Source: an uncultured Acidimicrobiales bacterium (GTDB lineage: Bacteria; Actinomycetota; Acidimicrobiia; Acidimicrobiales; JAHEJN01). Taken from it: a DNA stretch of 64,000 bases. Where the stretch lies: positions 69,544 through 133,543 of the forward strand of contig CAVOZP010000006.1 in the NCBI GenBank assembly GCA_963700995.1. Reading direction: 5' to 3'. The position numbers and the translations under genes are program-made. Each line of letters opens with the position of its first letter. The first letter of the stretch is position 1. Positions 8,853 to 26,532 of the stretch are shown one piece after another. Below the pieces are notes generated by a model, which saw only the letters and a list, made by a program, of their open reading frames with translations, was not told where the DNA came from and searched no databases.

Positions 8853-8874
8853 GTCCGTACAGTTTGGAGGCGAG

Positions 8875-9165
8875 GATGGCTACGAGCACGAAACGGACGC
8901 GGCAGTGAACGGCTCGAGGTTCGTACGACGCCACAGGACCGTGCGCTCATTGACAGCGCGGTGGCAGCGTCAGGTACTGATCTCACCGAGTTCGTTGTTG
9001 CCAATCTGACGGTCGCTGCTCGCCGGGTTCTGGCGGACCGGTTGGAGTTCTCTCTCGACGCCGAGGCTCGGGAGGCGTGGGAGAGGATCAATCGCCGCGA
9101 CGCCGCGGGACCTCGCTGGGCTTCGCGAGCTGATGGTTCGGCCGTCGCCGTTCGTCGACGGGTGA
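8875..9165 (+). CDS. DUF1778 (TacA-like) antitoxin, two frame breaks
   Basis: MATSTKRTR.. / ..ERLEVRTTPQDRALIDSAVAASGTDLTEFVVANLTVAARRVLADR..AWERI.. / ..PRDLAGLRELMVRPSPFVDG*. The three frame segments join near 8905 and 9100. The stop overlaps the toxin GTG (GTGA). Confidence 0.7.
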
Positions 9166-9680: not shown

Positions 9681-9737
9681 CCGTCCGGAGCGGAACCCCA
9701 AGGACGGAAGGGTCGAGCGGCATCGGTTGGCGCCCGC

Positions 9738-10007
9738 CGGGCACGATCTCATCCCATCCGCCATCCCATCTACTCCACGGGATCGGTGTCACTGGCCGGA
9801 CGGGGCATCACGGGATCGCACGGTTTCGCAGCTCCTGGGCAGGTATCGGTGTCTTGCCAAGGTTGAGGTCGCCGGTTCGAACCCGGTCATCCGCTCACAT
9901 AAGCGCAGGTCACGGCCACTTTTGGCCGTGACCTGACGCGTGGCCGGATTGGCGTCATCCCATCCGCTGTCCCATCCGCGTAACTTGACAGCGAAAACAT
10001 GGCACCG
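9738..10007 (+). repeat. tRNA-Gly(GCC) 3'-half-containing repeat, copy 2 (long form)
   Basis: Shares about 270 nt with 15992-16250: double CATCCCATCC box (from 9750), tRNA-like half 9853-9895 (followed by CAC, not CCA), perfect hairpin, second box TCATCCCATCCGCTGTCCCATCCGCGTAACTTGACA. Begins about 58 nt after the TacT stop. Confidence 0.85.
9906..9935 (+). terminator. perfect 13-bp hairpin after tRNA-like end
   Basis: CAGGTCACGGCCA CTTT TGGCCGTGACCTG. Confidence 0.6.
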
Positions 10008-10403
10008 CTCACAGGTCCGACTCGGGTGAAATCGAAGATCGCCAACCGGGCTGTCAGATCGACATCGGATCTGGTGCTGTTCCTCTCTTGAGCCACGACG
10101 CAGCTCTTGAGCCACGACGCAGCGAAGTCCGATCGAGTTGCCCTTCGTTCGATAGCCAGACCCACCAACGGGCCGGCAGGTCTTCGCGAGCAACCGCAGC
10201 TGGGTCCTCCCGAACGATACGGAACGCTGGCAACGCCCACCGAAAGCCCCGAGTAGGAACCTCTTGGATGCTCTGTGCGGGTCCGAGCCGGGCACACTTG
10301 TGGCGTGGGGTGGTTCGATCGAAATCGGCAGCGCTTGTACCGTAGGGCGGCGGAGCGGCAGGACAAGGGCTATCCCTCTTCTCTGCGGCGGCGGGTCGTC
10401 AGG

Positions 10404-10634
10404 GTGACGGACGCGGAATGGATGAGCCAATTCGACGCCGCCGAGCAGCTCCAGATCTCGATGTGGGCGATCGGGAGCTACATCTCTACCGGTCGATTGA
10501 CTCCAGCCGAGAATCCGGCGGGTCAGGCAGGGGTTACCCGGGTGAGTGTCGACACGGAAGCCGAGTGGCGACACGGCCGCCCTCTTCACGGGCGGTTCTG
10601 GCGCCGCGTAAAGGACCAGCTTCGGATCTTCTGA
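10404..10634 (+). CDS. small helix-turn-helix protein (excisionase/MerR-like)
   Basis: VTDAEWMSQFDAAEQLQISMWAIGSYISTGRLTPAENPAGQAGVTRVSVDTEAEW resembles Xis-type HTH proteins. Start is uncertain (GTG 10404 or ATG 10422). Confidence 0.45.
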   Translation: MTDAEWMSQFDAAEQLQISMWAIGSYISTGRLTPAENPAGQAGVTRVSVDTEAEWRHGRPLHGRFWRRVKDQLRIF

Positions 10635-10739
10635 CCATCTCGGAACGTCTGGAGTGGTCAGTGCAGCCCATGGCTGTCCCATCCAGGCACTTAACACTTG
10701 CAGCATGGGGGTCTGCCGCGGATAGCGGTGACAGGTTGG

Positions 10740-10988
10740 TTATGCGGCCAGGGCGGCCGGTGGGGTCATGATGGTTTCGTATTCGGTGGGGGTCAATCGG
10801 CCGAGGGCGTCTTGGCGTCGTCGGCGGTGGTAGGTGCGTTCGATCCAGGTGATGATCGCGATGCGTAGGTCGCGCGGGTCTCCCATCGGCAGGCGGGCCT
10901 TCATCCGCTCATCGATGGCCCAGCCGACGATCCGGTTCGACCACAGATCCTTGATCGCCGACGGCCCGATCTCGGGGCACCTGATCGG
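10740..10988 (-). mobile_element. IS3-family transposase (OrfB/rve) remnant with internal deletion
   Basis: My minus-strand translation is PIRCPEIGPSAIKDLWSNRIVGWAIDERMKARLPMGDPRDLRIAIITWIERTYHRRRRQDALGRLTPTEYETIMTPPAALAA*. An early rve motif (DLWSNRIVGW) is joined directly to the typical C-terminal tail (YHRRRRQDALG.LTP.EYE). There is no start codon, and no inverted repeats were seen. Confidence 0.7.
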
Positions 10989-11525
10989 TCAGCGTGCTCG
11001 GGCCTCGACGTCGAGCTGGTGGTGCGTGTACTCGTGGGCGAGCCAGCGCAGACCGTCAGCAACGGTGCCCGCACCCCAGTCACCGTGTTCGAACGGGGTG
11101 GCGTGGTCGAGCTCCCTGCTCAAGTGCACGAAACTGGCCGTGGCCTGATCCAGTGCCCACAACGCCGGAACCGTCGGCAGGTTGCGGTAGTTCCGGGCCG
11201 CTGCGAGCACGTCGGGGTCCCAGCCGGCCAGCAGCGAGCCGGGGGTGTCCTCGATCTGCACCCAGCGCTCCGACCAACTACGAGCCAGGTCGGTCAGGTG
11301 CCAGAGGTAGGCGGTGGCGTTCCAGCCTCCATCGTCGGGGGCGACCATGCCGTCCCGATCCGCGAGAAGCGCCGCATACCGATCGGGCGCCGCCTCGATC
11401 GCATCGACTGCCGCAGCGGACTGCATTGTCCAATCGAGGGCGCAGACGTCGCATCGGTCCCGGATAGTCCCGTTGTCGATCCAGGCCAGAGCACCGTTGA
11501 GGAACGGGGAGCGGGTCGCGTCCAT
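10989..11525 (-). CDS. DinB-family (mycothiol-dependent-enzyme-like) protein
   Basis: 178 aa from ATG 11525: ..AAVDAIEAAPDRYAALL..GWNATAYLWHLTDLARSWSERW..WLAHEYTHHQLDV. The N-terminal 240 codons of track ORF 10989..12251 are Arg/Ser-rich and rejected. Confidence 0.7.
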   Translation of the reverse strand: MDATRSPFLNGALAWIDNGTIRDRCDVCALDWTMQSAAAVDAIEAAPDRYAALLADRDGMVAPDDGGWNATAYLWHLTDLARSWSERWVQIEDTPGSLLAGWDPDVLAAARNYRNLPTVPALWALDQATASFVHLSRELDHATPFEHGDWGAGTVADGLRWLAHEYTHHQLDVEARAR

Positions 11526-12028
11526 AGACCGAGTGTCGCGCACAGAACGGCCCAAGCCGAGCACTGCATAGTCCTGGCCAGCGGTGACCGACGACAACGC
11601 CGAAGCGCTCGATCCACCGCCGTCCACCGACCGCCGACATCGCTTCTCCCTCGTAGCGGGTGCCAATAACGACCGCGCGACTGTCAGATCCTCGGTGTAG
11701 GTGGTCTGGCCTGAACGCTGCACCGACATGGCTCGGCCGAAAAGGACAGACCACGATGTGACGGTGGCGACACCGTCGGACGACACGGGCCAGGAGCGGC
11801 CGGACCGGTCGCTCGCAGAGCAACTCGTCGATGAGACCCCCGCTGATCTCAAGGTCGCTGGCCGATCCGCAACGCTCCGCTCGTCTCCCAGGCCGGCCGT
11901 TCGCGACGAACGCTCACGCCCGGCCATCCCCCAACGCTCGGAACACCTTGGCGGGCAACGCGCCTCAAAGTGTCGGTCAAGGGCACCCCATATCACGCGC
12001 ACCCCGGATACTTCTGCTCCAGCTGCTT

Positions 12029-12719: not shown

Positions 12720-15176
12720 GTGGCTGACTGCTGGTGGCGGTGCCGAAAGTTGACGGGGGGTGTCGTGGTGGTTCGACGGATCGCGGTGGTGGCGGGGGTG
12801 CTGTTGTTGGCGGGTGTGCTCGCCTTTGTCGGTGGAGGTGCGGTGAGCGCCCAGGACGGCGGGGGGGATCTGTCAGGGGCCGATGCCAATGAGGGCGGCC
12901 CGGGATTTGTGCTGCCTGCGAGCCGCATCACCGCCGGCAGCCTCCATTCGTGTGCCTTGTTGAACAACGGGACGGCCCGCTGCTGGGGCGTGGGCGATGT
13001 GCTCGGGTATGGGAACACCGAGTCGATCGGTGATGACGAGGTGCCGGCCTCGGCAGGGCCGGTTGATCTGGGCGTTGGCCGTACCGCCACCGCCATCAGC
13101 GCCGGCGGCTCATTGAATGGCCATTCGTGCGCCTTGTTGGACAACGGGACAGTCCGCTGCTGGGGCAGCGCCTTCTCTGGTGAGCTGGGCTATGGCAACA
13201 CCGACTGGATTGGGGATGACGAGGTGCCGGGTTCGGTGGGGCCGGTCGATCTGGGTGCGGGTCGCACGGCGACCGCTATCGCGGCGGGCGGGGACCATTC
13301 GTGTGCGTTGTTGGACAACGGAACGGTCCGTTGCTGGGGCCGCGGTGACAGCGGTCAGCTCGGCTACGGCAACACCGACTGGATTGGTGACAACGAGACA
13401 CCGGGTTCGGTGGGGCCGGTCGATCTGGGCATGGGCCGCACCGCCGTCGCGATCACCGCCGGCAGCAGTCATACATGTGCGGTGCTCGATGATGGGACGG
13501 TCCGCTGCTGGGGTGCCGGCATTTCCGGCAAGCTGGGCTATGGCAACACGAGCGACATCGGCGACAACGAAACCCCTGGCAGCGTTGGGCCCGTCGACCT
13601 CGGCTCTGGCCGCACGGCTCTGGCGGTCACTGCTGGTGGCAGCCACACGTGTGCGTTGTTGGACAACGGAACGGTTCGCTGCTGGGGTGAGGCCGGCGAC
13701 AGCACCACCCCCAGTGGGGCGCTCGGGTATGGCAACACGAACGACATCGGCGACGACGAGACCCCCGGCAGCGTAGGTCCTGTCACCCTTGGCCCTGGCC
13801 GGACGGCCGTAGCGGTCACCGCCGGTCTGTCTCATACGTGCGCCTTGTTGGATGACGGCAACGTTCGCTGCTGGGGTGCCAACTTCAATGGTGAGCTGGG
13901 CTATGGCAACACGAACGTCATCGGCGATGACGAGACCCCCGACAGCGTAGGTCCCGTCAGCCTTGGCCCTGGCCGGACGGCAGTAGCGATCACTGCCGGT
14001 GCTTCTCAGACGTGCGCTGTTCTGGATGACGGCACTGTTCGCTGCTGGGGCTACGGCCTTTACGGAGCACTGGGTTATGGCAACACGAACAACATCGGCG
14101 ACAACGAGACCCCGGGTTCGGTGGGGCCGGTTGACCTGGGCGGGCTCTTGGTGGAGGACACTGACGGAGACGGGGTGGCCGACGTCTCGGACAACTGCCC
14201 GGCGGTGGCCAACGCGAACCAGCTCGACACTGACGGTGACGGCGCTGGCGATGTGTGTGACGCTGATGACGACAACGACGGTGTGGCCGACGTCTCGGAC
14301 AACTGTCGCGTTGTGAAGAACGCCGATCAGGCCAACAACGACGGTGACAGCCTGGGCGACGTGTGTGACCCTGATGATGACAACGACGGGGTGGCCGACG
14401 GTGTCGACAACTGTCCGTTGACTGCGAATCCCGCCCAGTCCGATGTCGATGGTGACGGCCCCGGCGACGTATGCGACTCGATCGACAATCGTCGAAACCG
14501 GATCTTTGTCACCAACGTGATCCAGTCCGGGCCTGCCGAATACGACTTCGTGTTCGGCAACGCATTCGAAGAACTGTTCACTGGTGACTGGGACGGCAAC
14601 GGTCACGACGGCTTCGCCCGGCGGCTGGGGAGAACCATCGTCGAAGTCGATGAACGCGGCCGAGCGATCCGCAGGATCACCTTCGGCACCGCCACTGACA
14701 TGTTGTACCGGGTCGGTGACTGGGACGGCGACAACATCGACACGTTCGCGGTTCAACGGGGCAACGTCTTCTTCGTGACCAATTCGCCGACCGGCGGCCC
14801 CGGGCCCGCTCCCATCGGGTACGGGAGGGCCGGCGATGAGGTCTTCGTTGGCGACTGGAACGGCAACGGCCAAGACACCTTCGCGGTGCGCCGCGGCAAC
14901 GTCTTCTATGTCCGCAACTCGGTCACCACCGGGCCGGCCGACATTGTGTTCGGCTACGGGAGGGCCGGCGACGAGGTGCTGATCGGGGACTGGGACCAAG
15001 ATGGCGTCGACACGTTCGCGGTGCGCCGCGGCAATGTGATCTTCATCCGCAACGATTTCCAGACCGGGATCGCCGAGACCGTCATCGGCTATGGCAGAGC
15101 CGCCGACACGCTGTTGGTTGGCGACTGGAACGGCGACAACGTCGATACCTTCGCCGTGCAGCGCAGAGAACTCTGA
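12720..15176 (+). CDS. secreted RCC1-repeat / thrombospondin-type-3 Ca-binding repeat / FG-GAP-like repeat protein
   Basis: Signal-like RRIAVVAGVLLLAGVLAFVGGGAVSAQ. About 8 RCC1-type blades (HSCALLDNGTVRCWG..G.LGYGNT..IGD.E.PGSVGPVDLG.GRTA). About 5 DxDGDGxxDxxDNC units. Five C-terminal GDW(D/N)G.G.DTFAVRRGN.F units. Confidence 0.85.
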   Translation: MADCWWRCRKLTGGVVVVRRIAVVAGVLLLAGVLAFVGGGAVSAQDGGGDLSGADANEGGPGFVLPASRITAGSLHSCALLNNGTARCWGVGDVLGYGNTESIGDDEVPASAGPVDLGVGRTATAISAGGSLNGHSCALLDNGTVRCWGSAFSGELGYGNTDWIGDDEVPGSVGPVDLGAGRTATAIAAGGDHSCALLDNGTVRCWGRGDSGQLGYGNTDWIGDNETPGSVGPVDLGMGRTAVAITAGSSHTCAVLDDGTVRCWGAGISGKLGYGNTSDIGDNETPGSVGPVDLGSGRTALAVTAGGSHTCALLDNGTVRCWGEAGDSTTPSGALGYGNTNDIGDDETPGSVGPVTLGPGRTAVAVTAGLSHTCALLDDGNVRCWGANFNGELGYGNTNVIGDDETPDSVGPVSLGPGRTAVAITAGASQTCAVLDDGTVRCWGYGLYGALGYGNTNNIGDNETPGSVGPVDLGGLLVEDTDGDGVADVSDNCPAVANANQLDTDGDGAGDVCDADDDNDGVADVSDNCRVVKNADQANNDGDSLGDVCDPDDDNDGVADGVDNCPLTANPAQSDVDGDGPGDVCDSIDNRRNRIFVTNVIQSGPAEYDFVFGNAFEELFTGDWDGNGHDGFARRLGRTIVEVDERGRAIRRITFGTATDMLYRVGDWDGDNIDTFAVQRGNVFFVTNSPTGGPGPAPIGYGRAGDEVFVGDWNGNGQDTFAVRRGNVFYVRNSVTTGPADIVFGYGRAGDEVLIGDWDQDGVDTFAVRRGNVIFIRNDFQTGIAETVIGYGRAADTLLVGDWNGDNVDTFAVQRREL

Positions 15177-15412: not shown

Positions 15413-15653
15413 ATGGCTCGTACTCGACTCAGCACCACCGTGGACGGCGAACTCCTCGAGACGGCACGAAGGGTGCGGACGGGCGGGACCGACGCCGAGC
15501 TCATCGATGAAGCATTGCGGGCACTGGTTGCGCGCTATCGCGCCGCGGAGATCGATGGAGCCTACGATGCCCGCGTACCGCGCTCATCCCATCGACGAGC
15601 CAGACGAGTGGGGCGATCTCGCATCGTTCCGCGACGCATCGGCAGCGACATGA
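15413..15653 (+). CDS. ribbon-helix-helix type II antitoxin (MazE-like), frame broken near 15565-15575
   Basis: [48 protein letters not shown] / [26 protein letters not shown]. The stop overlaps the toxin ATG (ATGA at 15650-15653). Confidence 0.65.
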
Positions 15654-15978
15654 CGGATCTGCCGAGGCGCGGCGAGCTGTGGTGGTGCGAACCACCCGAG
15701 ATTGGCCGACGACCTGTGGTGGTGCTGTCGCGCGATGTTGTCATCCCAATGATGAGGCGCGCGCTCTGATCGCGCCGTGCACGACGACCATTCGAGGTTT
15801 GCCGAGCGAAGTCGTCCTCGAACCTGGCGACGAGCCGATCGGACGTCGAAGCGCCGTCAACCTCGACTCGGTCGAATCGGTGTCGATCGCCGTGCTCGTC
15901 GAGCGAATCGGCGCGCTCAGCGGAGAGCGTATGCGTCAGATCTGTGGCGCGCTGGAAGTCGCGACCGATTGCGAATGA
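15650..15978 (+). CDS. mazF: MazF/PemK-family endoribonuclease toxin, frame broken near 15745-15765
   Basis: [33 protein letters not shown].. / ..[66 protein letters not shown]. Confidence 0.75.
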
Positions 15979-15991
15979 CGACTTGGTTCCC

Positions 15992-16250
15992 CGGGCACGA
16001 TCTCATCCCATCCGCCATCCCATCTGCTGCACGGGTTCCGCGTCACCAGCCGGACGGGGCAACACTGGATCACACGGTTTCGCAGCCCCTGGGCAGTTGT
16101 CGGTGTCTTGCCAAGGTTGAGGTCGCCGGTTCGAACCCGGTCATCCGCTCGCAAATACGCAGGTCACGGCCACTTTTGGCCGTGACCTGACGCGTGGGCA
16201 GATTGGCGTCATCCCATCCGCGTAACTTGACACCTGCAACATGGCGCCGC
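15992..16250 (+). repeat. tRNA-Gly(GCC) 3'-half-containing repeat, copy 3 (long form)
   Basis: Collinear with copy 2: box from 16004, tRNA-like half 16107-16149, hairpin, single downstream box TCATCCCATCCGCGTAACTTGACA. Begins about 14 nt after the MazF stop. Confidence 0.85.
16160..16189 (+). terminator. perfect 13-bp hairpin after tRNA-like end
   Basis: Same CAGGTCACGGCCA CTTT TGGCCGTGACCTG as at 9906-9935. Confidence 0.6.
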
Positions 16251-16306: not shown

Positions 16307-17927
16307 GTGGCGATGCCTGATCAGCTCTACGAACGATTGGCAACAGCACTCCGGCAAGCCGGATGCACAGCCTTGTTCGGTCTCCCCGGTGGCGGTCCGA
16401 ACCTCGACGTCGTCGGTGCTGCACTGCAGGAAGGGATCGAGTTCGTGCTCGCCCACGGCGAAACCGAGGCCGCGATCATGGCGGGCACCTACGGGCTGTT
16501 GACCGGCACTCCCGGCGCAGTGGTCGCGACACGTGGCCCAGGCGCCACGTCGCTCGCAAACGGAGTCGCCCAGGCAACACTCGACCGCTTCCCGCTGGTC
16601 GCGATCACCGACACCGTTCCCGCTGCACAGTCTTCGAGAGTTGCTCATCAGCGGATCGATCAACGATCGTTCTTTGCGCCGATTTCGAAGACGAGCGCAA
16701 CGATCGGGCAACACGCCAGCGTGCAGCACCTCACGGAGTTGATCAACGAATCGACCCTCTGGCCGTACGGCACAGTCCACCTCGACTACGACCCCACCGA
16801 CACCACACCTCGGCGCGACCGCTCCCGGAACCGTGTGGTTCGTGAACCGACGACAAGTGACATTGCGGCGGCCACCGAGCTGCTCGCGCGAGCCGCCACC
16901 CCTGTCGTCGTGCTTGGTGCCGAAGCCGTCCCGCACGCAGCGGCGCTGCGGCCGCTTCTCGAACGAGCCGGCGCTCCGGTTCTCGACCACCTATCGCGCC
17001 GTCGGTGCGGTGCCGACCGAGGGCTTTCTCAACGCCGGTCTGTTCACGAACGGCAAGCTCGAGTCCGCAGTCCTCGGTGACGCCGACCTGATCGTCACCG
17101 TCGGACTGGATCTCGTCGAACCGATCCCTCGACGATGGGGCTACGACGCTCCGGTGATTCGGGTTTCTGCGGTTGACCAGGTCGACGATTACCTACCTGC
17201 CACGGTCGATCTCGTCGGTGCAATCGAGTCGACCTGCAAGGAGCTGTTCGGTCGCGTTGCCCCAGGTGCTGCTCGCGCCCAACCCAGGTACGCATCCGAC
17301 GCACGCGAAGCGGGGCGTCGGCAGATCCGCCAATGCGACACCACCGCGTTCGGACCCACCACGCTGGTCGATGCCGTGGCCAAAGCCCACCCTCGAGACT
17401 CCATCGTCACGGTGGACGCCGGGGCGCACTTTCTTGCGGTGATGCCGCTCTGGAGCGTCGACCGGCCGAACAGGCTGCTGATCTCGAATGGGCTGGCCAC
17501 CATGGGATTCGCGGTACCTGCGGCGATCGGGGCCGCAATTGCCACTCCCGGATGCAACGTGATCGTGTTCACCGGAGACGGCGGCATGTCGATGATGCTC
17601 GCTGAGCTCGAGACGATCGCCCGACTACAACTGCCGATCACCGTCGTGGTGTTCAACGACGCGACGCTCAGCCTGATCAAGATCAAACAGACGGCCCGAC
17701 ATGGCGGCCACCGGTCCGTCAGCTACGCCCCGGTCGACTTCGCCAAGATTGCCGAAGCAAGCGGTCTACGAGGCGTCGTGGTGACATCGTCAGACGAACT
17801 CGACGCCGAACTGGCACTTCACAAATGGGGAGAACCGCGTGTGATCGACGCACGAATCGACCCATCCGCCTATCCGGCAATCATCGACGCGACCCGTGGC
17901 GCGACCAGCCGGGGCGCATCGGCATGA
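16307..17927 (+). CDS. thiamine-diphosphate-dependent enzyme (acetolactate synthase large-subunit-like), frame broken near 16980
   Basis: N-terminal ..LFGLPGGGPNLDVV..VLAHGETEAAIMAGTYG..ATRGPGATSLANGV.. ThDP motif ..VFTGDGGMSMMLAELETIARLQLPITVVVFNDATLSLI in track ORF 16833..17927. Confidence 0.8.
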
Positions 17928-17958: not shown

Positions 17959-19899
17959 TCACTCGGGAAGCTCCATGACGTACACGTCCTGTTGTCCGTT
18001 GGTGTCGCCGTCGACCAGCCCGCTCGACGTCGAGAAGGTCGCCGAACGGCCGTCGCCGCTCAGCTCGAGCCGATCGAGCCCGAGCGAGTTACTCAGTTGA
18101 ACGGTGCTGCCGTCGAGAGTGTCCAGGACGAGGCTCTGTCCATTTTGAGTGGCCATCGCGATGTAACGACCGTCGGAGCTGATCGAGCTGGGTGAGGTCC
18201 AGAAGTCGGGTGCGAGCTCCAGAATCATCGTGTACTCGCCGATCGACCGGTCGTACACGAAGATGTCGTAGAAGCCGTTTACGTCATCGGGCACGAGACC
18301 TGGTGTGAATGACGGAAACACGAACCGCTCACCGTCGGGGTAGGGGAGGAGGCCGCCCTCCACGTCGGGAATACCGTCGAGTTTCGTGACGCTCCCCGTG
18401 TCGCGTTCGAAGATGAAGGCTCTGCTGTGGAGCTCGGATGTCACGACAAGGGAGCCATCGGGGGTCACCGCTGGTGGCGACACGCTTGCCCCCTCTCGCG
18501 TCATGTCGAATTCGGCGACCAGGGTGGTGGCGCCCGTCGTGGTGTCGTGGACCCAAACTGTATATACCGGCGGACGACCGTCCTCCCCCTGGGCAGCGGG
18601 GACGCCGCCCGGAGCAAGTTGGCCCCCGGGGTAGGTTGCGTAGGCGATGAGGGTGCCGTCGTCGCTCATATCGGGGTCGATGCTTTCTGACGGATGTTCC
18701 TGACCGTTGGGCATGAAGCTGATGTAACTGTTGCGTCCGGTCTCACGATCGTGGAGGTAGATGTCGCCGGGGCTTGTCTGTTCGTAGTCGGGATCGAGGT
18801 TTGTGGCGTCGGATGCAAACGCGATGTAGCGGCCATCTGCGGAGATCTGGGGGTCATGGCTGGCTCCCTCGGCCTCTTCGACTCGGTCGCCGAACACGAC
18901 TTGGCTGACTCGGGTGGTTTCGCCGGTCTCTCGGTCGTGGACGAACACGTCCCTGTTCCCGTTGGTGTCGCCGTCGACCAGGTTCGATGCCATCGAGTCG
19001 AATGCGACGTACCGGCCGTCGGCCGAGATGACCGGGTTGACGCTGTGGCCGTCACCCTGGGTCCCGTCGCTGGCGACGCTGACTCGGAATATCGTTTCGT
19101 TTTCGGCGGCCCCGAGTGCGGATTCGTCGCCCTGCTCGGAGACCAGTGGTTCGCTGCCGCCGGGTTCCTCCGAGACCAGCGGTTCACCCTCACCCGGTTG
19201 CTCGGCAACCAGCGGTTCACTTTCACCTGCAACGTCGACGGTTGCACGCTCGCTCGACCCCTGGTCGTTGCCCGCCAGAATCAAGCCGATACCAACGCCT
19301 CCGGCAACCAGAGCCGCGGCCGCCAGGCCAACGAGCGCAGTTCGAGGGATCCGGAGCTTCCGCCGCGAACGTCTTGGCGATGGGGCAGCGGGCGGCGCGA
19401 TACCGCGCTCGGCCAACATCGAACCGACCATGCCCTGCAACGAAACGGCGTGATCAGCGATCGATCCGGGGAACAGGTCGATCCACTGGGCGAGACGCAA
19501 CAGGTAGTTCAGGGTGCCGGTCGGGGCTACGTCCTCGACTCGGACCGGTAGCAGTGGCTTGGCTCGCTCCACCGCCAGATCGACCTCACGGGCGACATGC
19601 GCTGAGCCGCTCGCGTTCGCCGAGACGACGATCAGCATCACGTCGCACGATTCGATCGCTGCTTCGATCTGTTCGGGCCACGGTGTGGGGCCGGCGACAT
19701 CGTCAGGAGCCATCCAACAGGCAAATCCACCTGCTTCGAGATGGGCCCGAATCTCGCGGGCCAGGCCGTCGTCGGTCTTCTCGTGACTGATGAACACCAC
19801 ACCAGGGCGCAACGGCGACACGGGCGACGGCTGATCGCTCGGCGTGTGTGGCACTGCGTGTGGGCGCGAGATCTGCTCGGTGGGGTTGGAGTCGTCCAT
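17959..19899 (-). CDS. TIR domain - TM helix - PD40/TolB-type beta-propeller protein (TIR-A)
   Basis: From ATG 19899: TIR-like VVFISHEKTDDGLAREIRAHLEAGGFACWMAPDDV..VMLIVVSANASGSAHVAREVDLAV. TM helix TALVGLAAAALVAGGVGIGLILAG. Three 12-aa linker repeats. Propeller repeats SADGRYVAFDS, SADGRYIAFAS, SDDGTLIAYAT, SSDGRYIAMAT with DGDTNG..DV(F/Y)V. The 308 upstream codons of the track ORF overlap TIR-B and are rejected. Confidence 0.8.
   Translation of the reverse strand: MDDSNPTEQISRPHAVPHTPSDQPSPVSPLRPGVVFISHEKTDDGLAREIRAHLEAGGFACWMAPDDVAGPTPWPEQIEAAIESCDVMLIVVSANASGSAHVAREVDLAVERAKPLLPVRVEDVAPTGTLNYLLRLAQWIDLFPGSIADHAVSLQGMVGSMLAERGIAPPAAPSPRRSRRKLRIPRTALVGLAAAALVAGGVGIGLILAGNDQGSSERATVDVAGESEPLVAEQPGEGEPLVSEEPGGSEPLVSEQGDESALGAAENETIFRVSVASDGTQGDGHSVNPVISADGRYVAFDSMASNLVDGDTNGNRDVFVHDRETGETTRVSQVVFGDRVEEAEGASHDPQISADGRYIAFASDATNLDPDYEQTSPGDIYLHDRETGRNSYISFMPNGQEHPSESIDPDMSDDGTLIAYATYPGGQLAPGGVPAAQGEDGRPPVYTVWVHDTTTGATTLVAEFDMTREGASVSPPAVTPDGSLVVTSELHSRAFIFERDTGSVTKLDGIPDVEGGLLPYPDGERFVFPSFTPGLVPDDVNGFYDIFVYDRSIGEYTMILELAPDFWTSPSSISSDGRYIAMATQNGQSLVLDTLDGSTVQLSNSLGLDRLELSGDGRSATFSTSSGLVDGDTNGQQDVYVMELPE
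19129..19227. repeat. 36-nt x about 3 in-frame tandem repeat in the TIR-A linker
   Basis: Encodes GESEPLVAEQPG / EGEPLVSEEPG / GSEPLVSEQGD. Coordinates derived by codon counting from 19899. Confidence 0.7.
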
Positions 19900-20094
19900 G
19901 GTGCCGACCTGAGACAATCGTTCTGCACGGCTGCTGAACTTCGATCTTCCACCATCAATTGAAGGATGGAAGGGCACCTTGCTGGTAGAGCACTTGGGCC
20001 CGATTCTCCGGCGAGTCGTGCACGCTCCGAGGGTCGCGTCGGTCTGGTGACGAAAGGCACTTCCGTGGGGCATCCGCATCGTCACATGATGTGG

Positions 20095-20874
20095 ATGAGT
20101 CCAGACAGGCGCGCGCCTTGGCAGCCGGTCATGTGGAGGGAGGCGCACGTGGCGCATGACGTGTTCATCAGTTACTCGTCTACCGACAAGGCCGTGGCAG
20201 ATGCTGCGTGCGCCACGCTCGAGAAGCGGAGGATTCGTTGCTGGGTGGCCCCACGCGATGTGCCGGCCGGTGTTTCGTGGGCCTCGTCTCTGGTCGAGGC
20301 CATTGGTGGCAGCAGGGTTGTCGTCCTGATCCTCTCGAAGGGATCGAACAGCTCGCCGCAAGTCATCCGTGAGGTGGACGAGGCGGTCGGGACGGGGATC
20401 CCGGTCGTGCCGCTGCGTATCGACGACGTCGAACCGTCGGACCAGATGCGCTTCTACATCAAGTCGGTGCACTGGCTCGATGCCCTCAGCCCGCCGATGG
20501 AAGAGCACCTGAAACGCTTGGCCGACTCGGTCGAGGCCTTGTTGGCGGTGGGCGACGACCGACGGCCGCCGCTCGGAGAGCAGCCCGGCGACAGCCCGAC
20601 CACGCCTCGTGCCGTTTCGGCTCAAATCCTCGAGACCGGCAGAGTCGTCGATGCGGTCGTCACGAAAACGTCGATGGACATGGCGACACTCAGCCTTCCC
20701 GACGGCAACATCGGCAAGATCATCCTGCCCGACTATCGGCTGCTCCTCGTTTTCAAGCCGCTCAAATGGCTGAGCCGCAAGTACGCGGTGGGAGACCGCC
20801 TCACGGTCAGGATCAAGCGGCACATGCGGACCGGGAACTACTCGTGTGAGCCCTACATCGATCCAACCGTGTGA
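20095..20874 (+). CDS. TIR domain protein with C-terminal OB/S1-like module (TIR-B)
   Basis: HDVFISYSSTDKAVADAACATLEKRRIRCWVAPRDVPAGVSWASSLVEAIGGSRVVVLILSKGSNSSPQVIREVDEAV..HWLDALSPP. C-terminus GRVVDAVVTKTSMDMATLSLPDGNIGKIIL..GDRLTVRIK. Start is 20095 (by analogy with TIR-E) or 20131. Confidence 0.8.
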   Translation: MSPDRRAPWQPVMWREAHVAHDVFISYSSTDKAVADAACATLEKRRIRCWVAPRDVPAGVSWASSLVEAIGGSRVVVLILSKGSNSSPQVIREVDEAVGTGIPVVPLRIDDVEPSDQMRFYIKSVHWLDALSPPMEEHLKRLADSVEALLAVGDDRRPPLGEQPGDSPTTPRAVSAQILETGRVVDAVVTKTSMDMATLSLPDGNIGKIILPDYRLLLVFKPLKWLSRKYAVGDRLTVRIKRHMRTGNYSCEPYIDPTV

Positions 20875-20884
20875 TCAGTCGCGG

Positions 20885-22576
20885 CTATCTCGCTGAGGAC
20901 CCTCCACAGTAGGAAACGATCTGATAGCCGGCGCGCGCCAGAAACGCTGGGATCCCTCGGACGGCCTGGCGATCCTGCTCCTTGACACCGTCGCTCAGCT
21001 CATTCCATGGCACCAGGTACGGCGAGGTCTTCGCGTCGACGTCTCTGGGGCCCGAGGTCCATCCGTTGCGTCGACGTTCGTGCACCCATCGTTCGTGCTC
21101 CATCTCCGAGAGCATCTCCACCTCCGCGTCGGTGAAGGTCACTTCGTGGGCGTCCCAGTCGGTGAGCGGAGCGATTCCCCGGCCGATGGCGGCGAGCTTG
21201 GTGCCGATGTGGCCGGCCTGGTCTCGGTTCGACTCCTTGAGCGATGCCGCGAGCTTCTCCCACGGCGCCATGGAGGGATTCGTTTCCGGCCGTGCCCCTC
21301 GGAGTCGTTGCTGGGCCACGTACTCCTCGTGGGTCGCTCGAGCCAAGATTTCGTACGTGCCACCGAGAAGGAGATCGGTCTGCATGGTTCGGTCGAGGAC
21401 GCTGAACGCCCGAATGCGGCCGGAGTGAGTCGGCCGGTCGACCAATCGGCCGAGCGCGCCGGTGTGGCTCAGTTCGACCACGATGAGGGCGTCGGGCATC
21501 TCCAGGCAGCGTTGGATCGCAAGGCCGGCTCGGACAGAGCGCGAGTCGTCGTCGATGCAGATGTAGATCGTCTTCGCGGCTGATTCTCCGATGGCATCGG
21601 TGTCGACCGGGTCGATGGCGGCGACCACCGGGTTGATGTTCGCGGCGTGGTCGAGCTGTGGGTAGCGGCGGCACAGTCGGTCGATGATCGTGTTGGCGTC
21701 GGGATCCACGACCGTGATGTCGATGGGCCGGCCTCGGGCGGTGGGGTGAGCTCTCCATTGGCGGGCGAGCTCGGCCACCAGGGTCTGACCGAGCCGATTC
21801 AACCCGACCACCATGACGGCAGTGAGGCCATCGTCGAGTTCGTCGGCCGGAAACGGCGAGAAGTCGCGGAGCATGAGCCGGGCACCCTGCTCGTCGATGT
21901 TGAAGAAGTCGAGACGCGTGCCGGCGGGATGACTCGCGGCGAGCTCGTCGGATCGCATGAGCACGCAGAGATCCGGATCTCGGATGCGGGCGAGACACGA
22001 CAAACCGGGGCCCTGCCGCTCGGCGACCAGGTCCATGGCGTCGAGGACCACTTCGGCGTTGGTCTCATCACTGCCGGTGAGACAGACGAGATGCGCGGCA
22101 CGAGCCAAACGGGCCCGTCGAAGCGTGTCACGGTCGCGCGCATCGCCGACGATCACGGCGGCACCTCGGTGACGACTGGCCACGATGGCGGGGTTGAGCC
22201 CATCGGCCTCGATTCCCACGACACGTTGACCTGCGTCGAGGAGTTGTGTCACGAGCCTGGTACCGGCTGTGCCCAGGCCGCAGACGACGACGTGGTTGCG
22301 GGTTCGCCCGAGACGCCACTCCCGTATCTGCTCGCTGAAGGCCGTCGAAACTGCGGCAATCAGTGCCGTCGCCGAAGCCGCCGGCGCTGCGAGCCGCGCC
22401 ACTTCGAGCTGCCACGGTGCGCCGGTCGCCGGGACGCTGCCGGACTCGAGCGTGAAGAGTTGAAGGCTCAGGTAGACGACGTCGGATGTCGACTTGGCGA
22501 TACCCGCCTCATCGAAGTACTCACGGAAGCCGACGTAGCCGAGGACGAAGGCGGTCACGGTGAAGGCGGCCAGCAA
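20885..22576 (-). CDS. 2-TM pore-loop channel-like / tandem TrkA-N (RCK) Rossmann / tandem RyR-repeat protein
   Basis: TM1 AAFTVTAFVLGYVGF. Pore-helix-like VVYLSLQLFTLESGS, with no TVGYG filter. TM2 LAAPAASATALIAAVSTAF. GxGxxG motif VVVCGLGTAGTRLV and a second VMVVGLNRLGQTLV. C-terminal RyR-type repeats THEEYV..APWEKL..SNRDQA and MEHERWVHERRRNGW..YLVPWNELSDGVKEQDRQAVRGIP. Confidence 0.8.
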   Translation of the reverse strand: MLAAFTVTAFVLGYVGFREYFDEAGIAKSTSDVVYLSLQLFTLESGSVPATGAPWQLEVARLAAPAASATALIAAVSTAFSEQIREWRLGRTRNHVVVCGLGTAGTRLVTQLLDAGQRVVGIEADGLNPAIVASRHRGAAVIVGDARDRDTLRRARLARAAHLVCLTGSDETNAEVVLDAMDLVAERQGPGLSCLARIRDPDLCVLMRSDELAASHPAGTRLDFFNIDEQGARLMLRDFSPFPADELDDGLTAVMVVGLNRLGQTLVAELARQWRAHPTARGRPIDITVVDPDANTIIDRLCRRYPQLDHAANINPVVAAIDPVDTDAIGESAAKTIYICIDDDSRSVRAGLAIQRCLEMPDALIVVELSHTGALGRLVDRPTHSGRIRAFSVLDRTMQTDLLLGGTYEILARATHEEYVAQQRLRGARPETNPSMAPWEKLAASLKESNRDQAGHIGTKLAAIGRGIAPLTDWDAHEVTFTDAEVEMLSEMEHERWVHERRRNGWTSGPRDVDAKTSPYLVPWNELSDGVKEQDRQAVRGIPAFLARAGYQIVSYCGGSSAR

Positions 22577-22686
22577 GAGCCAGCCGCGTCGAGCGCCAGG
22601 CTGCGGTCAACTTGACGCCTACTGAGCGACGAAGGGACCGGCGCCGGGTGACCGGGTCGTTGGGGTTCACCGGACGTCACCCCTTC

Positions 22687-25315
22687 TCACGCATCGAGGG
22701 TGACGACGCGCAGGCCGACCGTTGCGAGGAGCTCGGGGATTGCCTGCACCACCAGCCGATCCTTGTTCCGTGCGCGTTCGTTCCCAGCCAGCGATCCCGG
22801 ACCCAGCCGGCGTCTGACCGAGTAGGGATAGCGGGCGATCCGCTCGGCGTCGGTCATCGGGGCCCAGGGCACCAGATCCGGGTCGGTCCAGGGTGCCTCA
22901 CCGTCGTTGCCCCAGCAGAAGCCCTCGGCGACCCTTTCCGCGATCCAGCGGTCGTGTTCGAGTTGAGCGAGTCGTTCGATGATCTGGGGAGACAGGTCGA
23001 CCACGGGTTCTGCGCCGTTCCCGAGCGGGGCGAGGGCGTGACCGATGATGGCGAGCTTTCTGGGGATGTCGAGCACGGCGGCCCGGCTGGCCGACCGCTC
23101 GGCGTCGCTCAGCTCGTCCCAGGGAGGCCAGGAACCCCAGTCGTTGTCGGCTGCGGCGGTTCGGAAGCGCTCGTGCAGGCCCTTGGCGAGCTTCTCGGCG
23201 AGGGGCCCAACGACTGGAACCCGGCGTGCGAGCGTGAGGAACTCCTCGTCGTCGACGTGGAGGCGCAGCTGGGTTGCCGGAGGCAGGGCCGACCGGTGGT
23301 AGTGCTGTTCGCCGGCGAGGCGGCTGCCGGCCACGATCGACTCCATCGAGCGAACGCCGTGGCGGAATCGGCGCACATCCAGGAAGGCGCCGGCGACGTC
23401 CGGGTCGACGGCGAGCTCGCGGACTCCGTCGGCTCGCGGACGCCAGAGCTGCGGCCACGTCCGAGTGAGCAGGGATTGCAGCACGATCGCGCGACGAATG
23501 ACGTGCTCGGGGTCAGCCGCGGGGTCGTCGGTGCCGGGATCGGGGCCGAGGATGTCGACGGTGGCCCGCAGTCGGCTCAAGAAGTCGGGCCCCTTCACGC
23601 TTCGGAATCGAGCCGTGCGTTCCTCGCCGGATCGGCCCAGATCGCGTCCGAGGTCGTCGAGGCGTTCTGCTGTTCCGCCGGCGAAGACGAAGATCGCCCG
23701 GCCGAACGGATGGACGACTGGCCCGTCGTGGAACTCGCCGTCCTGCATCGGGGCGAGGAAGTGCGGACAACCGAGCGGTTGGCTCCGCGGTGGTATCGAA
23801 CTCGTCCCAGAAGACCAGCGGCACGGGGCCGACAGACCGGCGTCACGTACGAGATGGAACGCGGTGATGGAGCTCGTCGGGTCTTTCGACCTGCGACAGG
23901 TTGAAGGTCAGCTTCTCCACCTCACCGGCGTGCAGCGAGCGAGCGAGCTGTTTGACGGCGAACGACTTGCCCGACCCTGGCGGCCCGAAGACAGCGATCG
24001 ACAGCGGTCGCGGTGGTCGGGGCAGGGCGCAGTATTCGGCAATCAGGTTCTGGACACTTCGGAACCCCTCGATCTCGCGACGATCGGCAGTGAGGAGGGC
24101 ACCGAATCGACCAACGGGCATGCCCTTCAGCGCGGGCCCCGGGCCGAGCCGCACGATCTGCCTTGCGAGGTGATCGAAGCCGCCGATGTGGTGCTCTCGC
24201 AGGATCGACCACTGGCCATCGTGGCCGGTGGGTGGTGGCACGACGGTCGTGGCGAAATCGTCTGGCTCGCGTTGGAGCGCGGCCGCGACGGTTTCGTGGG
24301 GGAACCGGATGGCGGTGCTTCCGGGCTCGGGAGCGATGAAGCCGGTCTCGTGCAACGCGCGCAGCGCAGTCAAGCCGCGTCGAGCGCCGTCGACGAGCGC
24401 GACTTCGGCCGACATCGTGGTGAGCGTCGACGCCAAGCCGACCGTGAGGCAGGTCGTTCCCCCGATCATGCCGCCTGGCCGATTGGCCTCCCAGGTCCCT
24501 TCCATCTCGCGCGGATCGAAGACCAGCTTCGAGTCGAGCTCGAGGTCGGGGCTGCGGCGGTGGGCAACGAATGCGCCTGCCGCCCCGAACGATACGACGA
24601 CGTCTGCGGCCTGCGCGAGCGGAGCCAGCTCCGTCGCTGACGAGAGCGCCCGGGCGAGGTCTTGGGCCGAGGCCTCCCAGGACATGCCCCGGCTCACCTC
24701 CACACCCGAACGCCGGACGTCGCCGACGGTGGTGACGACGACGAGGCGCTCGATGTCGAGGTCGAGCAGGCGCCGGAACAGGGCGCTGCGACCGAACAGG
24801 TCGGAGGTCTTCAACACGACGACCCGCGGCGCCGCGGCGGCCTGCTCACGGATGGACGACGGCCACAGCTGCGGGTCTTCGCTGAAGCCCAGTCCGCCGT
24901 CGTCAAGGAGCGCGACGTCGGGGCTCGCAGCATCATCCTCGACCTGCGCCCACTCGGCGGCAGGCGGGCACATGTCGTCTCGGCGCGCCAAGCCGAGGTA
25001 GTCGCCCATCCGCCAGACGGGCTCCTTCGAAGTGTGGGTGAAGGGGTAGGGCGCCCACGCCGCGCTCGAGTGATGGAAGCGCCGATCGTCGGGTCGCGGG
25101 GGTGCGCCGGTGGGAATCGACCGAACATCGGCCTCGATTGCCGCTCTCGTGAGTGAGGCGAGCAGGCACGCACCACCGGGCTGCAGGCTGATCGATGCGT
25201 ACTGTTCGCCCGACCAGGACACTGTGGTCGAGGTCGGGCTCATGTCGGCCACGTTCCAGTCGAGGGTGACGTCGCCGGCGATTACCAGGGTCGGCACGGG
25301 AGTGGCCGATGTCAT
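22687..25315 (-). CDS. PfkB/ribokinase-like domain + AAA+ ATPase + tandem RyR-repeat protein, three frame breaks at 23770-23870
   Basis: N-terminus TLVIAGDVTLDWNV..QPGGACLLA..LLDDGGLGF..FGAAGAFV..RPGGMIGGTTCL is ribokinase-like but lacks the GAGD anion hole. Walker A AVFGPPGSGKSFAV, Walker B PLVFWDEFDT, then FLAPMQDGEFHDG..AIFVFAGGT. C-terminal RyR-type repeats LHERFRT..PPWDELSDAERSASRAAVLDIP and LEHDRWIAERVAEGF..DLVPWAPMTD..NKDRLVVQAIP. Pieces are track ORFs 23843..25675, 23513..23824 and 22687..23748. AFHLVRDAGLS reads in the third frame. Confidence 0.75.
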
Positions 25316-26532
25316 GTCGAGGCTCCCTCGGGCGGGGCTGTCATGGTGAAGTAGTCGAAGCCCAAACCGTCGATGTCGTCCCCGAAGTCCTTCGCGGCCG
25401 TGGTCGGCTCCGGCGACGAGTCGAAGCGGATGTTGGAATAGGTGACCGGGGCACTCTGGCCGTATTTGACGAGCGCGATGCGGCCACTCCGGTTCATTTC
25501 CGGTGACAGCACGACCGAGGCGACCTTCTGGTCGTCGACGAGAAGACTGCCGAAGTCGCCCACCACCTCGATCTTCATGGTGAAGGTGTCGCTCGTCTCG
25601 CCGTCGAGCACCATTTGATTCTCGAAGAGCCACTCGGTGCCGTCGTAGATCGTGTGGGCTCGTACGGCCTGCCAAGCACCTGTGATGTTGAAGATGAGCG
25701 AGCCCTGCGACCAGCTCGGCCCGTCTCCATAGACCACAACCATGCCCTCGCCGAAGCCCGTGAAGTCACTGGTCACGTCGATCTCGAGCGCGAAGTCACC
25801 CTCGATGGTCTCTTCGGTCCAGGCGAACGTGTCATCCGAGCCGGTCGCCCGGTACGTCTCGGGAGCAGGACTCGACCATTGACTGTCGTTGGGCACGACG
25901 AACGACAGGGTCTGTCCTTCGTCGCCGGGGTCCGACCCCGATCGGGAGAGTGCGAAGACGAGCGATCCGACGACAACCATGGCCAGCGTCGCGCCGATGA
26001 CGGCCAGGGTTCTCGCCGGGAGGCGGCGTCGGGGCCGAGGAGCCGCAGTCGTGATGTCCGGTGCGGGAGCGACGGTGTCTGCGGCCGACTCCACCTCCAA
26101 CGCGGCGTCGACGAGGGCGGAGAGCCTGCTCAAGTGGCGCTCGAGGGGCGGGGTCAACGCGTCGAGCCAGTGGATCGACTTGATGTAGTAGCGCATCTCG
26201 TCGGAGGGTTGAACGTCCTCGATCCTGAAGGGGATGATGGGCAGGCCGTTGTCGACTGCTTCGCCGACCTCTCGGTTCACCTGGGGCGACGCGTTGGAGC
26301 CCTCGGACAGGATCAGAACCAAGATGCGGCTGCGGCCGATCGCTTCGACGAGCGAGGCCGCCCAGGATCGACCCGGTGGTACGTCGCGAGGCGCGATCCA
26401 GCACCTGGTGCCGTTCGCTTCGAGAGCCGCACACGCAGCATCTGCGACGGCCTTGTCTCGCGCTGAGTAGCTGATGAACACGTCGTGAGTCACGGGTTGC
26501 CTCCCGGCGCCGCCAGGCCTCCTTGAGTTCAT
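25312..26532 (-). CDS. TIR domain - TM helix - DUF1080/concanavalin-like jelly-roll protein (TIR-E)
   Basis: HDVFISYSARDKAVADAACAALEANGTRCWIAPRDVPPGRSWAASLVEAIGRSRILVLILSEGSNASPQVNREVGEAV. TM helix TLAVIGATLAMVVVGSLVFAL. C-terminus ..FALEIDV..GMVVVYGDG..TMKIEVVGDFGSLLVDDQKV..GRIALVKYGQSAPVTYSNIRF. The stop overlaps the next gene's ATG (ATGA). Start taken at ATG 26532. Confidence 0.8.
   Translation of the reverse strand: MNSRRPGGAGRQPVTHDVFISYSARDKAVADAACAALEANGTRCWIAPRDVPPGRSWAASLVEAIGRSRILVLILSEGSNASPQVNREVGEAVDNGLPIIPFRIEDVQPSDEMRYYIKSIHWLDALTPPLERHLSRLSALVDAALEVESAADTVAPAPDITTAAPRPRRRLPARTLAVIGATLAMVVVGSLVFALSRSGSDPGDEGQTLSFVVPNDSQWSSPAPETYRATGSDDTFAWTEETIEGDFALEIDVTSDFTGFGEGMVVVYGDGPSWSQGSLIFNITGAWQAVRAHTIYDGTEWLFENQMVLDGETSDTFTMKIEVVGDFGSLLVDDQKVASVVLSPEMNRSGRIALVKYGQSAPVTYSNIRFDSSPEPTTAAKDFGDDIDGLGFDYFTMTAPPEGAST

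Follow-up and report, generated by a model that had tools for sequence, protein, structure and literature searches.

The 64,000-nucleotide stretch of DNA analysed here (the window; positions 69,544 to 133,543 of contig CAVOZP010000006.1, GenBank assembly GCA_963700995.1) comes from an uncultured Acidimicrobiales bacterium whose assembly amounts to 2.5 Mb and is 58% complete. Exactly three genes with a TIR_2 domain are found in this assembly, and all of them lie at one locus in the window: TIR-A (17959-19899, minus strand), TIR-B (20149-20874, plus strand) and TIR-E (25312-26532, minus strand), accompanied by two genes for proteins with a RyR domain. The distinctive feature of the locus is that TIR-A and TIR-E join a TIR domain of the catalytic type to a predicted extracytoplasmic sensor, an arrangement that is undescribed in the literature we searched and is widespread.

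TIR-A is a protein of 646 aa, and a gene call of identical length is found on a strain contig that is 94% identical (L092). Residue numbers of TIR-A and TIR-E, as well as E136 of TIR-B, follow the open reading frame (ORF) translations P0001, P0002 and P0003. The TIR_2 domain of TIR-A spans residues 35-145 (19465..19797, minus strand, as are all features of this gene) and scores 75.4 bits in Pfam (E 7.2e-21), above the gathering cut-off of 28 bits for TIR_2 (PF13676). The codon of Glu105, at the catalytic position, lies at 19585-19587 in the motif HVAREVD and is aligned to a glutamate that is near-invariant in the family. The sole transmembrane (TM) helix covers approximately residues 186-209 (19273..19344) with a hydropathy of 2.31, and AlphaFold2, run on an alignment of 34 homologues, places a helix in the membrane region at residues 186-201. 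On its N-terminal side the TM segment is preceded by RRSRRKLRIPR and it is followed by an acidic stretch, so that seven K/R are found in the 20 residues before the helix and one after it. Next comes an acidic linker (19099..19272) in which the peptide repeat GESEPLVAEQPGEGEPLVSEEPGGSEPLVSEQ occupies residues 225-258; as read from the sequence, the repeat unit is (G)SEPLV(A/S)E(Q/E), in three copies. Tandem Repeats Finder (TRF) found no DNA-level tandem repeat under this linker, and AlphaFold2 predicts residues 198-267 to be disordered, with a predicted local distance difference test (pLDDT) score below 50. The remainder of the protein, residues 268-646 (17962..19098), is modelled as a single beta-propeller with pLDDT mostly above 90 and is predicted to be extracytoplasmic. 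PD40 (PF07676) scores 41 bits here against a cut-off of 20.9, the Foldseek matches (entry 3c5m among them) are oligogalacturonate lyase, G-beta, TolB (1crz) and tricorn, and the repeat consensus of this propeller type is SADGRYVAF..NLV..DTN..DVFVHD. The initial annotation had described TIR-A as a TIR domain, a single TM helix, an acidic repeat linker and a PD40/TolB-type propeller, and on this order Pfam, hydropathy, AlphaFold2 and Foldseek agree.

TIR-E has the same plan with a different C-terminal domain, and over the TIR domain and the following helix it is 32% identical to TIR-A. Its gene can be read as 406 aa from an ATG at 26532, but the true start is probably the GTG at 26493, which gives 393 aa and agrees with the database gene call P0123. 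The TIR_2 domain at residues 18-126 (26155..26481, minus strand throughout) scores 79.9 bits (E 2.7e-22), again above the gathering threshold, and the codon of Glu88, the catalytic-position residue, is found at 26269-26271. A sole TM helix at residues 172-198 (25939..26019; hydropathy 2.45) corresponds to an AlphaFold2 helix at residues 173-197, and it is preceded by RPRRRLPAR, with five K/R before the helix versus one after. Residues 205-375 (25408..25920) form a concanavalin-A-like (CBM66/DUF1080-like) beta-sandwich, predicted to be extracytoplasmic and modelled from an alignment of 58 orthologues with pLDDT 86-97. The order of TIR domain, single TM helix and C-terminal sandwich given in the initial annotation is thus borne out by Pfam, hydropathy and AlphaFold2.

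The top structural match of the sandwich in the PDB is the CBM66 module 4b1m/4azz (E 2e-10, target TM-score 0.77-0.80), the fructan-binding module of B. subtilis SacC. Further matches are the C-terminal domain of levanase BT1760, GH16 enzymes and galectins, and the structural-genomics entries 4jqt, 3imm and 3u1x, labelled as putative glycosyl hydrolases, which we take to be DUF1080 members. At the level of sequence families the assignment is less clear. A Pfam search of the outer domain at E<=0.01 gave nothing, and at E<=5 the sole match was DUF1080 (PF06439), at E 0.011 with 16.2 bits against a cut-off of 26.8, spanning profile positions 39-186 of 187; three RyR-linked relatives of TIR-E (L012, L015, L028) reach 23-24 bits. 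Since the only match is sub-threshold, we dropped DUF1080 family membership and do not file TIR-E as a member. The outer domain had been named a DUF1080/concanavalin-like jelly roll, and of this name the fold stands, through the CBM66 match and the confident model, whereas the family does not: the predicted fold is concanavalin-A-like, and DUF1080 is borderline at the family level.

The third protein, TIR-B, has 241 aa and consists of a TIR domain and an orphan tail of 110 aa. It starts at the GTG at 20149, 5 nt downstream of the ribosome-binding site GGAGGGAGG; the database gene call agrees in length. Its TIR_2 domain (20161-20520, plus strand) scores 75.1 bits, above the Pfam threshold, and the codon of Glu75 (E136 in the numbering of P0003) lies at 20371-20373. 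TIR-B and TIR-E share 70% identity over 134 residues, comprising the TIR domain and the following helix, and then diverge completely. No TM helix is seen in the hydropathy profile of TIR-B, as expected of the soluble member that it had been proposed to be. For the tail, which had been proposed to be OB/S1-like, Pfam gives no match at E<=5, and a homologue search restricted to it returned only one relative, a copy that is 95% identical, so that the OB/S1 reading is no more than tentative.

All three TIR domains of the window keep the canonical catalytic glutamate, as do 387 out of 392 distinct domains of the subfamily. The glutamate (E88 of TIR-E) is invariant across 59 TIR-E orthologues, the motif [HQ]V.REV that contains it is present in all relatives of TIR-A, and the glutamate of the window TIR domains aligns with the corresponding residue of the solved TIR-STING chain 6wt6. 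As the residue is retained, the three domains are unlikely to be pure scaffolds, although retention is no proof of activity; from sequence, they are probably enzymes of the NADase type.

Directly downstream of TIR-E are the two RyR genes, both on the minus strand. The first (22687..25315) encodes a large cytoplasmic P-loop ATPase with a further domain at the N-terminus and a RyR domain at the C-terminus. It is homologous over the full length to intact relatives of 867-924 aa, and its ATG overlaps the stop codon of TIR-E (ATGA, 25312-25315). The second (20885..22669) starts 18 nt past the stop of the first and encodes a channel-like protein of 594 aa with N-terminal TM helices, a TrkA_N (RCK) domain (E 3.6e-21) and a RyR domain (E 1.9e-14). 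TIR-B is oriented convergently to this second RyR gene, and the starts of TIR-A and TIR-B diverge across a 250-bp spacer (19900-20148), which is likely a shared regulatory region. 

The large RyR gene is not intact in the window. Three frame changes occur within approximately 150 nt (23750-23900), between the Walker A (GPPGSGKS) and Walker B motifs and before the segment FLAPMQDG, and the homologous pieces ITAFHLVRDAGLS, PLVFWDEFD and FLAPMQDGEF sit in alternating frames. L092 reads the equivalent of this region in one frame and has a frame change of its own further on (approximately L092 9150-9190). The gene upstream of TIR-A, encoding a thiamine pyrophosphate (TPP)-dependent, acetolactate-synthase-like enzyme, is likewise split into two overlapping ORFs in different frames (16307-17080 and 16833-17927, plus strand), and in L092 it is a single gene of 537 aa. 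The frame breaks in the window look like indel errors of long-read assembly, pseudogenisation being the alternative.

On which side of the membrane the two ends of TIR-A and TIR-E lie is central to any function. Neither protein has a signal peptide: within the first 40 residues, hydropathy rises no higher than 0.04 in TIR-A and 0.69 in TIR-E. In the family as a whole there is no room for one, because beta-strand A of the TIR domain begins already at residue 2-5 (consensus MAHDVFISY; 59 TIR-E orthologues), and the absence of an N-terminal signal peptide, claimed from the outset, is therefore confirmed at both levels. With no signal peptide and with basic clusters before both TM helices, the TIR end should be cytoplasmic. 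The same charge bias is found in relatives. Of 120 one-TM homologues, 91% have more K/R on the N-side than on the C-side; of 73 one-TM locus proteins 75% do, with 5% showing the opposite, and the mean K/R count of the flanks in the one-TM TIR proteins of the 80 loci introduced below is 3.2 on the N-side versus 1.7 on the C-side. For the C-terminal end, 93 of 108 homologues (86%) of the TIR-A propeller that lack a TIR domain bear a signal-like hydrophobic N-terminus, from which we take it that this propeller type is normally exported, and in relatives the position of the ectodomain is taken by extracytoplasmic types of module such as SBP_bac_3, choline-binding repeats, C-type lectin and CBM-like folds. 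NAD+, the substrate of TIR enzymes, is cytoplasmic, and so are the RyR domains of the operon partners. We conclude that TIR-A and TIR-E are very probably type II (N-in/C-out) single-pass membrane proteins. The earlier suggestion that the TIR domain is inside and the C-terminal domain outside accordingly fits the positive-inside rule, the exported propeller type and the modules of the relatives, and the predicted RyR-domain proteins of the operon supply a cytoplasmic candidate for the read-out of the intracellular TIR output that it had postulated.

This architecture is not a peculiarity of the window. A phmmer search of 1.84 billion representatives (50% identity clusters), with the TIR head of TIR-E (134 residues) as the query, gave 4,393 clusters at E<=1e-30; at E<=1e-10 the number rises to 14,042. 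A scan of one genome per species with the peptide patterns HDVFIS[YH]S[ST] and RCWIAPRD found at least 583 loci of the subfamily in Chloroflexota, Acidobacteriota, Alphaproteobacteria, Verrucomicrobiota, Planctomycetota, Actinomycetota, Bacillota and several archaea, and the best 80 of these loci are the basis of the counts out of 80 given here. One TM helix after an N-terminal TIR domain, and none before it, is found in 120 of the 127 TIR-bearing proteins that two homologue searches returned; exactly one TM helix is present in 73 of the 87 TIR ORFs at the best 80 loci and in 80 of the 130 top phmmer representatives. The domains that follow the TIR domain and TM helix include Lectin_C, DUF1349/GH43_C2 (concanavalin-A-like), FGE-sulfatase, Kelch, LVIVD, WD40 and SBP_bac_3, but also choline-binding repeats with PPC, DUF4189, DUF4440, TPR, Sel1 and Ank. 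Among the 59 TIR-E orthologues mean identity is 71% in the TIR domain versus 40% in the ectodomain. An N-terminal TIR domain, one TM helix and a swappable C-terminal domain is thus the rule for a large family. A different composition is seen in P0244, P0245, P0246 and P0248, also among the top representatives of the subfamily, which carry four to five tandem TIR domains in 620-880 aa and no TM helix.

The coupling to RyR genes recurs as well. In an Anaerolineales metagenome-assembled genome (MAG; L001/L002) the large RyR gene, the TrkA_N-RyR gene and a TIR-E orthologue stand in a row next to a divergent TIR-WD40 gene, and in L003 the order is TrkA_N, RyR, TIR-E orthologue. In a Chloroflexia MAG (L005; CAVRYZ010000004.1, 3243-14898) the large RyR and TrkA_N-RyR genes are followed by three consecutive TIR-TM genes, whose outer domains are an LVIVD propeller, a concanavalin-A-like sandwich and a double WD40 propeller. 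Upstream of this row there is also a small SLOG-like ORF. L008 and L009 resemble L005, and in L009 the large RyR gene and/or TrkA_N-RyR is found beside a relative of TIR-E. For TIR-A, all three relatives with readable flanks (L004, L090, L091) have a TrkA_N-RyR or RyR ORF next door, in one case with a stop/start overlap between the two genes. A RyR gene is located within 10 kb at 13 of the 80 TIR loci and at 7 of the 12 belonging to the closest TIR-E relatives. In a sample of 201 genomes across the phylum of the window and 14 control genomes, RyR is present in 7 and 1, respectively; 5 of the 7 also have a TIR_2 gene no more than 10 kb away from the RyR gene. The linkage of TIR and RyR is far above chance.

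Unbiased clustering of the neighbours revealed a second recurrent partner, a SLOG-like and SLATT protein that is found at 14 of the 80 loci, archaeal ones included (among them L043 (9866-15231), L032, L018, L059, L063-L066, L074, L077 and L083). It has 600-660 aa with DUF4231/SLATT_1 two-TM modules, SLATT_1 being above the cut-off in three members, and an N-terminal domain with faint similarity to the SLOG-fold proteins DprA and YpsA and the motif GVTGHR...PLAEGAD. At L043 and L065 a TrkA_N-RyR-like gene stands between the TIR-TM gene and the SLOG/SLATT gene. The window itself contains no SLOG/SLATT-type gene. According to a recent Thoeris catalogue (Yirmiya et al., preprint 10.64898/2025.12.03.692087, December 2025), SLATT already counts among the effector types linked to TIR signalling.

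We also note a locus from another genus of the same phylum (L088, G178:C23:213000-232900; 7947-11933), where the gene of a four-TM RyR protein (793-aa ORF) stands immediately before that of a TIR_2 protein whose TM helix comes approximately 175 residues after the TIR domain, and which may represent a second, independent TIR-RyR pairing. In its congeners G069 and G139 a TIR protein of 1,400 aa is found 4-7 kb from the RyR gene.

What the RyR domains could do is suggested by phage proteins, in which RyR (PF02026) domains bind or cleave 2'/3' cyclic ADP-ribose (cADPR), with ligand binding through an H..W pair together with another His and an Asp (PMC13232231). Both RyR domains in the window have the HxxW motif (EHERW and EHDRW), and both residues of the catalytic dyad of RyDEP, His and Asp, seem to be present. 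The operon partners thus share PF02026 and the ligand-pocket HxxW with RyDEP, but the two settings differ: the phage proteins are small counter-defence proteins that destroy or sequester 2'/3' cADPR (PMC13232231), whereas in the window RyR is a C-terminal module of host channel-like and ATPase proteins.

Among known systems, Thoeris comes closest. It comprises types I-XI and approximately 29 predicted configurations of TIR and effector, and several ThsB genes per effector are a known pattern (10.64898/2025.12.03.692087). Type VII, with a SLATT effector and canonical cADPR, has been validated, and so has type X, with an ion-channel effector, an unknown signal and TIR domains of a different, ThsB-like subfamily; a "4TM SLOG" configuration is catalogued there as untested (10.64898/2025.12.03.692087). 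These three are the nearest relatives of the window locus, whose family members elsewhere pair with SLOG-like/SLATT proteins. The likeness lies in several TIR genes with a catalytic glutamate beside shared, putatively membrane-acting effectors that carry a domain of the nucleotide-binding type, and in arrays of TIR-TM-X genes with differing X by one RyR pair (L005, L008). The differences are equally clear. Known ThsB proteins are soluble and triggered inside the cell, whereas for TIR-A and TIR-E a membrane anchor and a large domain on the outside are predicted. The TIR subfamily of the window has its own motifs, HDVFISYS and RCWIAPRD, and matches ThsB weakly: the PADLOC model ThsB1 gives partial, weak matches to TIR-E (E 2.5e-4 and 9.4e-3) and none to TIR-A, TIR-B and the three neighbouring proteins, and Pfam ThsB_TIR reaches 18.6 bits on TIR-A, under its cut-off of 21.2. 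Finally, the putative signal reader at the window locus is a RyR domain. Neither RyR nor TrkA is mentioned in the accessible text and supplements of the Thoeris catalogue, and the motif CWIAPRD is absent from the examined part of its Table S1 (10.64898/2025.12.03.692087). NCBIfam models likewise gave only generic TIR and TrkA matches on the proteins of the locus.

The combination of TIR with recognition domains has been described before in another form, namely as TIR proteins with lectin-fold NPCBM and FGS domains that are proposed to be cytoplasmic sensors of invaders (Kaur, Iyer, Burroughs and Aravind; PMC8195603). Those systems share with the window the joining of TIR to lectin-fold recognition domains, the logic of variable domains and the diversification of paralogues, but they are cytoplasmic and regulated by STAND or other NTPases, and an outward sensor separated by a TM helix with a RyR read-out is not described there. 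We found no published membrane-spanning bacterial TIR protein with an outward sensor in literature searches that took in a TIR survey (PMC7075850), papers from the Aravind laboratory, a diversity-generating retroelement (DGR) paper and a TIR atlas preprint.

The initial annotation saw in these proteins the logic of Toll-like receptors, and the architecture bears this out in part, with a single-pass protein whose TIR domain is cytoplasmic and whose outer domain is of the repeat or lectin type, and with ligand-induced clustering as a natural model for both. It does not extend to the details: in TIR-A and TIR-E the orientation is reversed, with an N-terminal TIR domain, no signal peptide and no leucine-rich repeats, and they keep the catalytic glutamate, so that they are probably enzymes and not adaptor scaffolds, and MyD88-type adaptors are lacking. 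The resemblance is one of domain shuffling around a shared TIR fold, not of orthology.

A closer bacterial analogy is offered by M. tuberculosis PknD, with a kinase, a TM helix and an extracellular beta-propeller, and PknB, with a kinase, a TM helix and PASTA domains. These are likewise type II proteins, in which a single TM helix separates the catalytic domain, N-terminal and cytoplasmic, from an outer propeller or binding domain, and TIR-A resembles a PknD in which TIR replaces the kinase. The predicted output differs, being TIR (NAD+ chemistry) and not kinase activity, with RyR-domain partners downstream.

Taken together, we suggest the following outside-in mechanism. The outward domain would bind a multivalent ligand on the envelope side, with glycans, fragments of the cell wall and phage surfaces as candidates; the binder would be the lectin-like beta-sandwich in TIR-E and the PD40 propeller, held on a flexible acidic stalk, in TIR-A. 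Binding would cluster the receptors and thereby bring the cytoplasmic TIR domains together. TIR NADases and cyclases require oligomerisation for activity, and clustering would for this reason activate the TIR heads, which could then turn NAD+ into a nucleotide of the cyclic ADP-ribose type. This signal would be read by the RyR domains of the TrkA_N/RCK channel-like protein and of the large P-loop ATPase, and the output would be an altered ion flux or membrane state. TIR-B could act in the cytoplasm as the third sensor, or it could be drawn into the TIR assemblies as an amplifier. The logic would be that of Thoeris, with several TIR sensors and a shared signal-binding effector, but with sensing shifted to the outside of the cell. 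We put the probability of this whole chain, a Thoeris-like TIR signalling from outside to RyR-domain effectors, at roughly 0.5. Activation of TIR-A and TIR-E by a ligand, taken by itself, we would rate a little short of an even chance, and the enzymatic product, the binding of that product by RyR and a role in defence are what we infer for the window locus.

Several observations weigh against this mechanism. The TM helices and the topology were called from Kyte-Doolittle hydropathy and flank charge only, and the ankyrin, WD40 and TPR domains that take the outer position in some relatives are more usual in the cytoplasm. Binding of cADPR by RyR has been shown only for phage proteins (PMC13232231), and in both RyR domains of the window the phosphate-binding His of RyDEP seems to be replaced, as read without alignment to RyDEP itself. 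The large RyR gene is frame-broken, and the system may therefore be partly decayed here, unless the breaks are indel errors. Neither RyR nor SLATT is found near 56 of the 80 TIR loci, and many family members may thus act alone. Moreover, the TIR locus sits between housekeeping genes, and PADLOC finds generic TIR matches only, with no defence-system model that fits the neighbours in the locus.

The alternative that survives best, although we consider it rather unlikely, is that the TM helix and outer domain are an anchor and not a sensor: they would tether the TIR domain to the membrane or the cell wall, e.g. close to the channel effector, and a cytoplasmic cue, e.g. a phage protein, would activate it as in classical ThsB. 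All characterised Thoeris TIR proteins respond to infection from inside the cell (10.64898/2025.12.03.692087), co-localisation with membrane effectors could by itself be of help, and the same TIR domain can work without a TM helix, as TIR-B, the soluble paralogue, shows. However, an anchor has no need of dozens of well-folded domains of the binding type swapped onto one conserved TIR domain, nor of arrays of paralogues that differ just in the outer domain, as in L005, and the long flexible stalk of TIR-A would be unexpected.

Alternatively, the same outside-in pathway from TIR to RyR could serve physiology, with the sensing of an environmental or cell-wall glycan tuning K+ or ion flux through the RCK-RyR channel, for example in osmotic or community behaviour of filamentous bacteria in soil or sludge. 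The housekeeping surroundings and the missing PADLOC model would suit such a role, as would the neighbours of relatives, which are transporters, phosphatases and similar, the solute-binding ectodomains in some relatives, and the standing of TrkA_N/RCK proteins as classical regulators of K+ transport. We regard this as improbable in view of the paralogous TIR sensors, the fast-evolving or swapped outer domains and the SLATT pore-type partners, which are hallmarks of conflict systems; in addition, the operons of TIR and effector tested so far are anti-phage (10.64898/2025.12.03.692087). 

A shade less probable still is that the TIR domains are terminal depleters of NAD+ and that the RyR proteins are regulators or clean-up enzymes, e.g. 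cADPR glycosidases like RyDEP. Many bacterial TIR proteins kill through NAD+ depletion (reviewed in 10.64898/2025.12.03.692087), the 56 loci mentioned above have no recognisable signal-reading neighbour, and RyR domains of the RyDEP type can be hydrolases (PMC13232231), with the dyad His and Asp seemingly present in the window. The tight and recurrent operonic coupling to channel-like RyR proteins, and elsewhere to SLOG-like/SLATT proteins, fits signalling from a sensor to an effector better. Last, a reversed topology, or a hydrophobic segment that does not span the membrane, so that both domains share one compartment, would draw on the indirect nature of the topology prediction and on the typically cytoplasmic Ank, WD40 and TPR domains of relatives, but it is highly improbable given a segment of at least 19 residues scoring 2.3-2.45, a basic cluster that both proteins and 75-91% of relatives have on the TIR side of it, the lack of a signal peptide to export the N-terminal TIR domain, the cytoplasmic NAD+ and RyR partners, and a propeller type that is exported in 86% of TIR-less homologues.

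To our knowledge, the known bacterial immune systems that signal through nucleotides (CBASS, Pycsar, Thoeris and type III CRISPR) detect infection inside the cell. If the proposed outside-in signalling to RyR-domain effectors is true, bacteria also use innate-immune-type signalling from the outside, before or independent of the entry of a genome. It would also give a prokaryotic context to two animal themes, receptor-type TIR proteins and the control of RyR-domain channels by cyclic ADP-ribose. A bolder version, which we hold to be doubtful, is that transmembrane TIR proteins form a very large and so far undescribed set of pattern-recognition receptors in bacteria and archaea. Their swappable ectodomains (lectins, propellers, solute-binding proteins) would detect threats or ligands outside the cytoplasm, clustering would switch on the inner TIR domain, a messenger of the cADPR type would gate RyR-domain ion channels, and TIR-B would act in the manner of an adaptor or amplifier; such a system would be a prokaryotic counterpart of both the architecture of Toll-like receptors and the animal axis from cADPR to the ryanodine receptor. 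As the family is modular and large, with thousands of clusters and members in many phyla and in archaea, its ectodomains could provide a catalogue of what microbes sense at their surface.

As for the surroundings of the locus, ARAGORN found no tRNA gene in the window. A mobile island flanked by tRNA was weighed as an explanation for the locus and dropped, as the tRNA-Gly-like repeats (16004-16152) are separated from TIR-A by the housekeeping TPP-enzyme gene. A few kb upstream of the TIR locus there is a toxin-antitoxin pair of the RHH/MazF type (15413-15978) and, also a few kb upstream, a gene for a large secreted protein with an RCC1 propeller, identified by Pfam, and thrombospondin-type-3 repeats (12720-15176).

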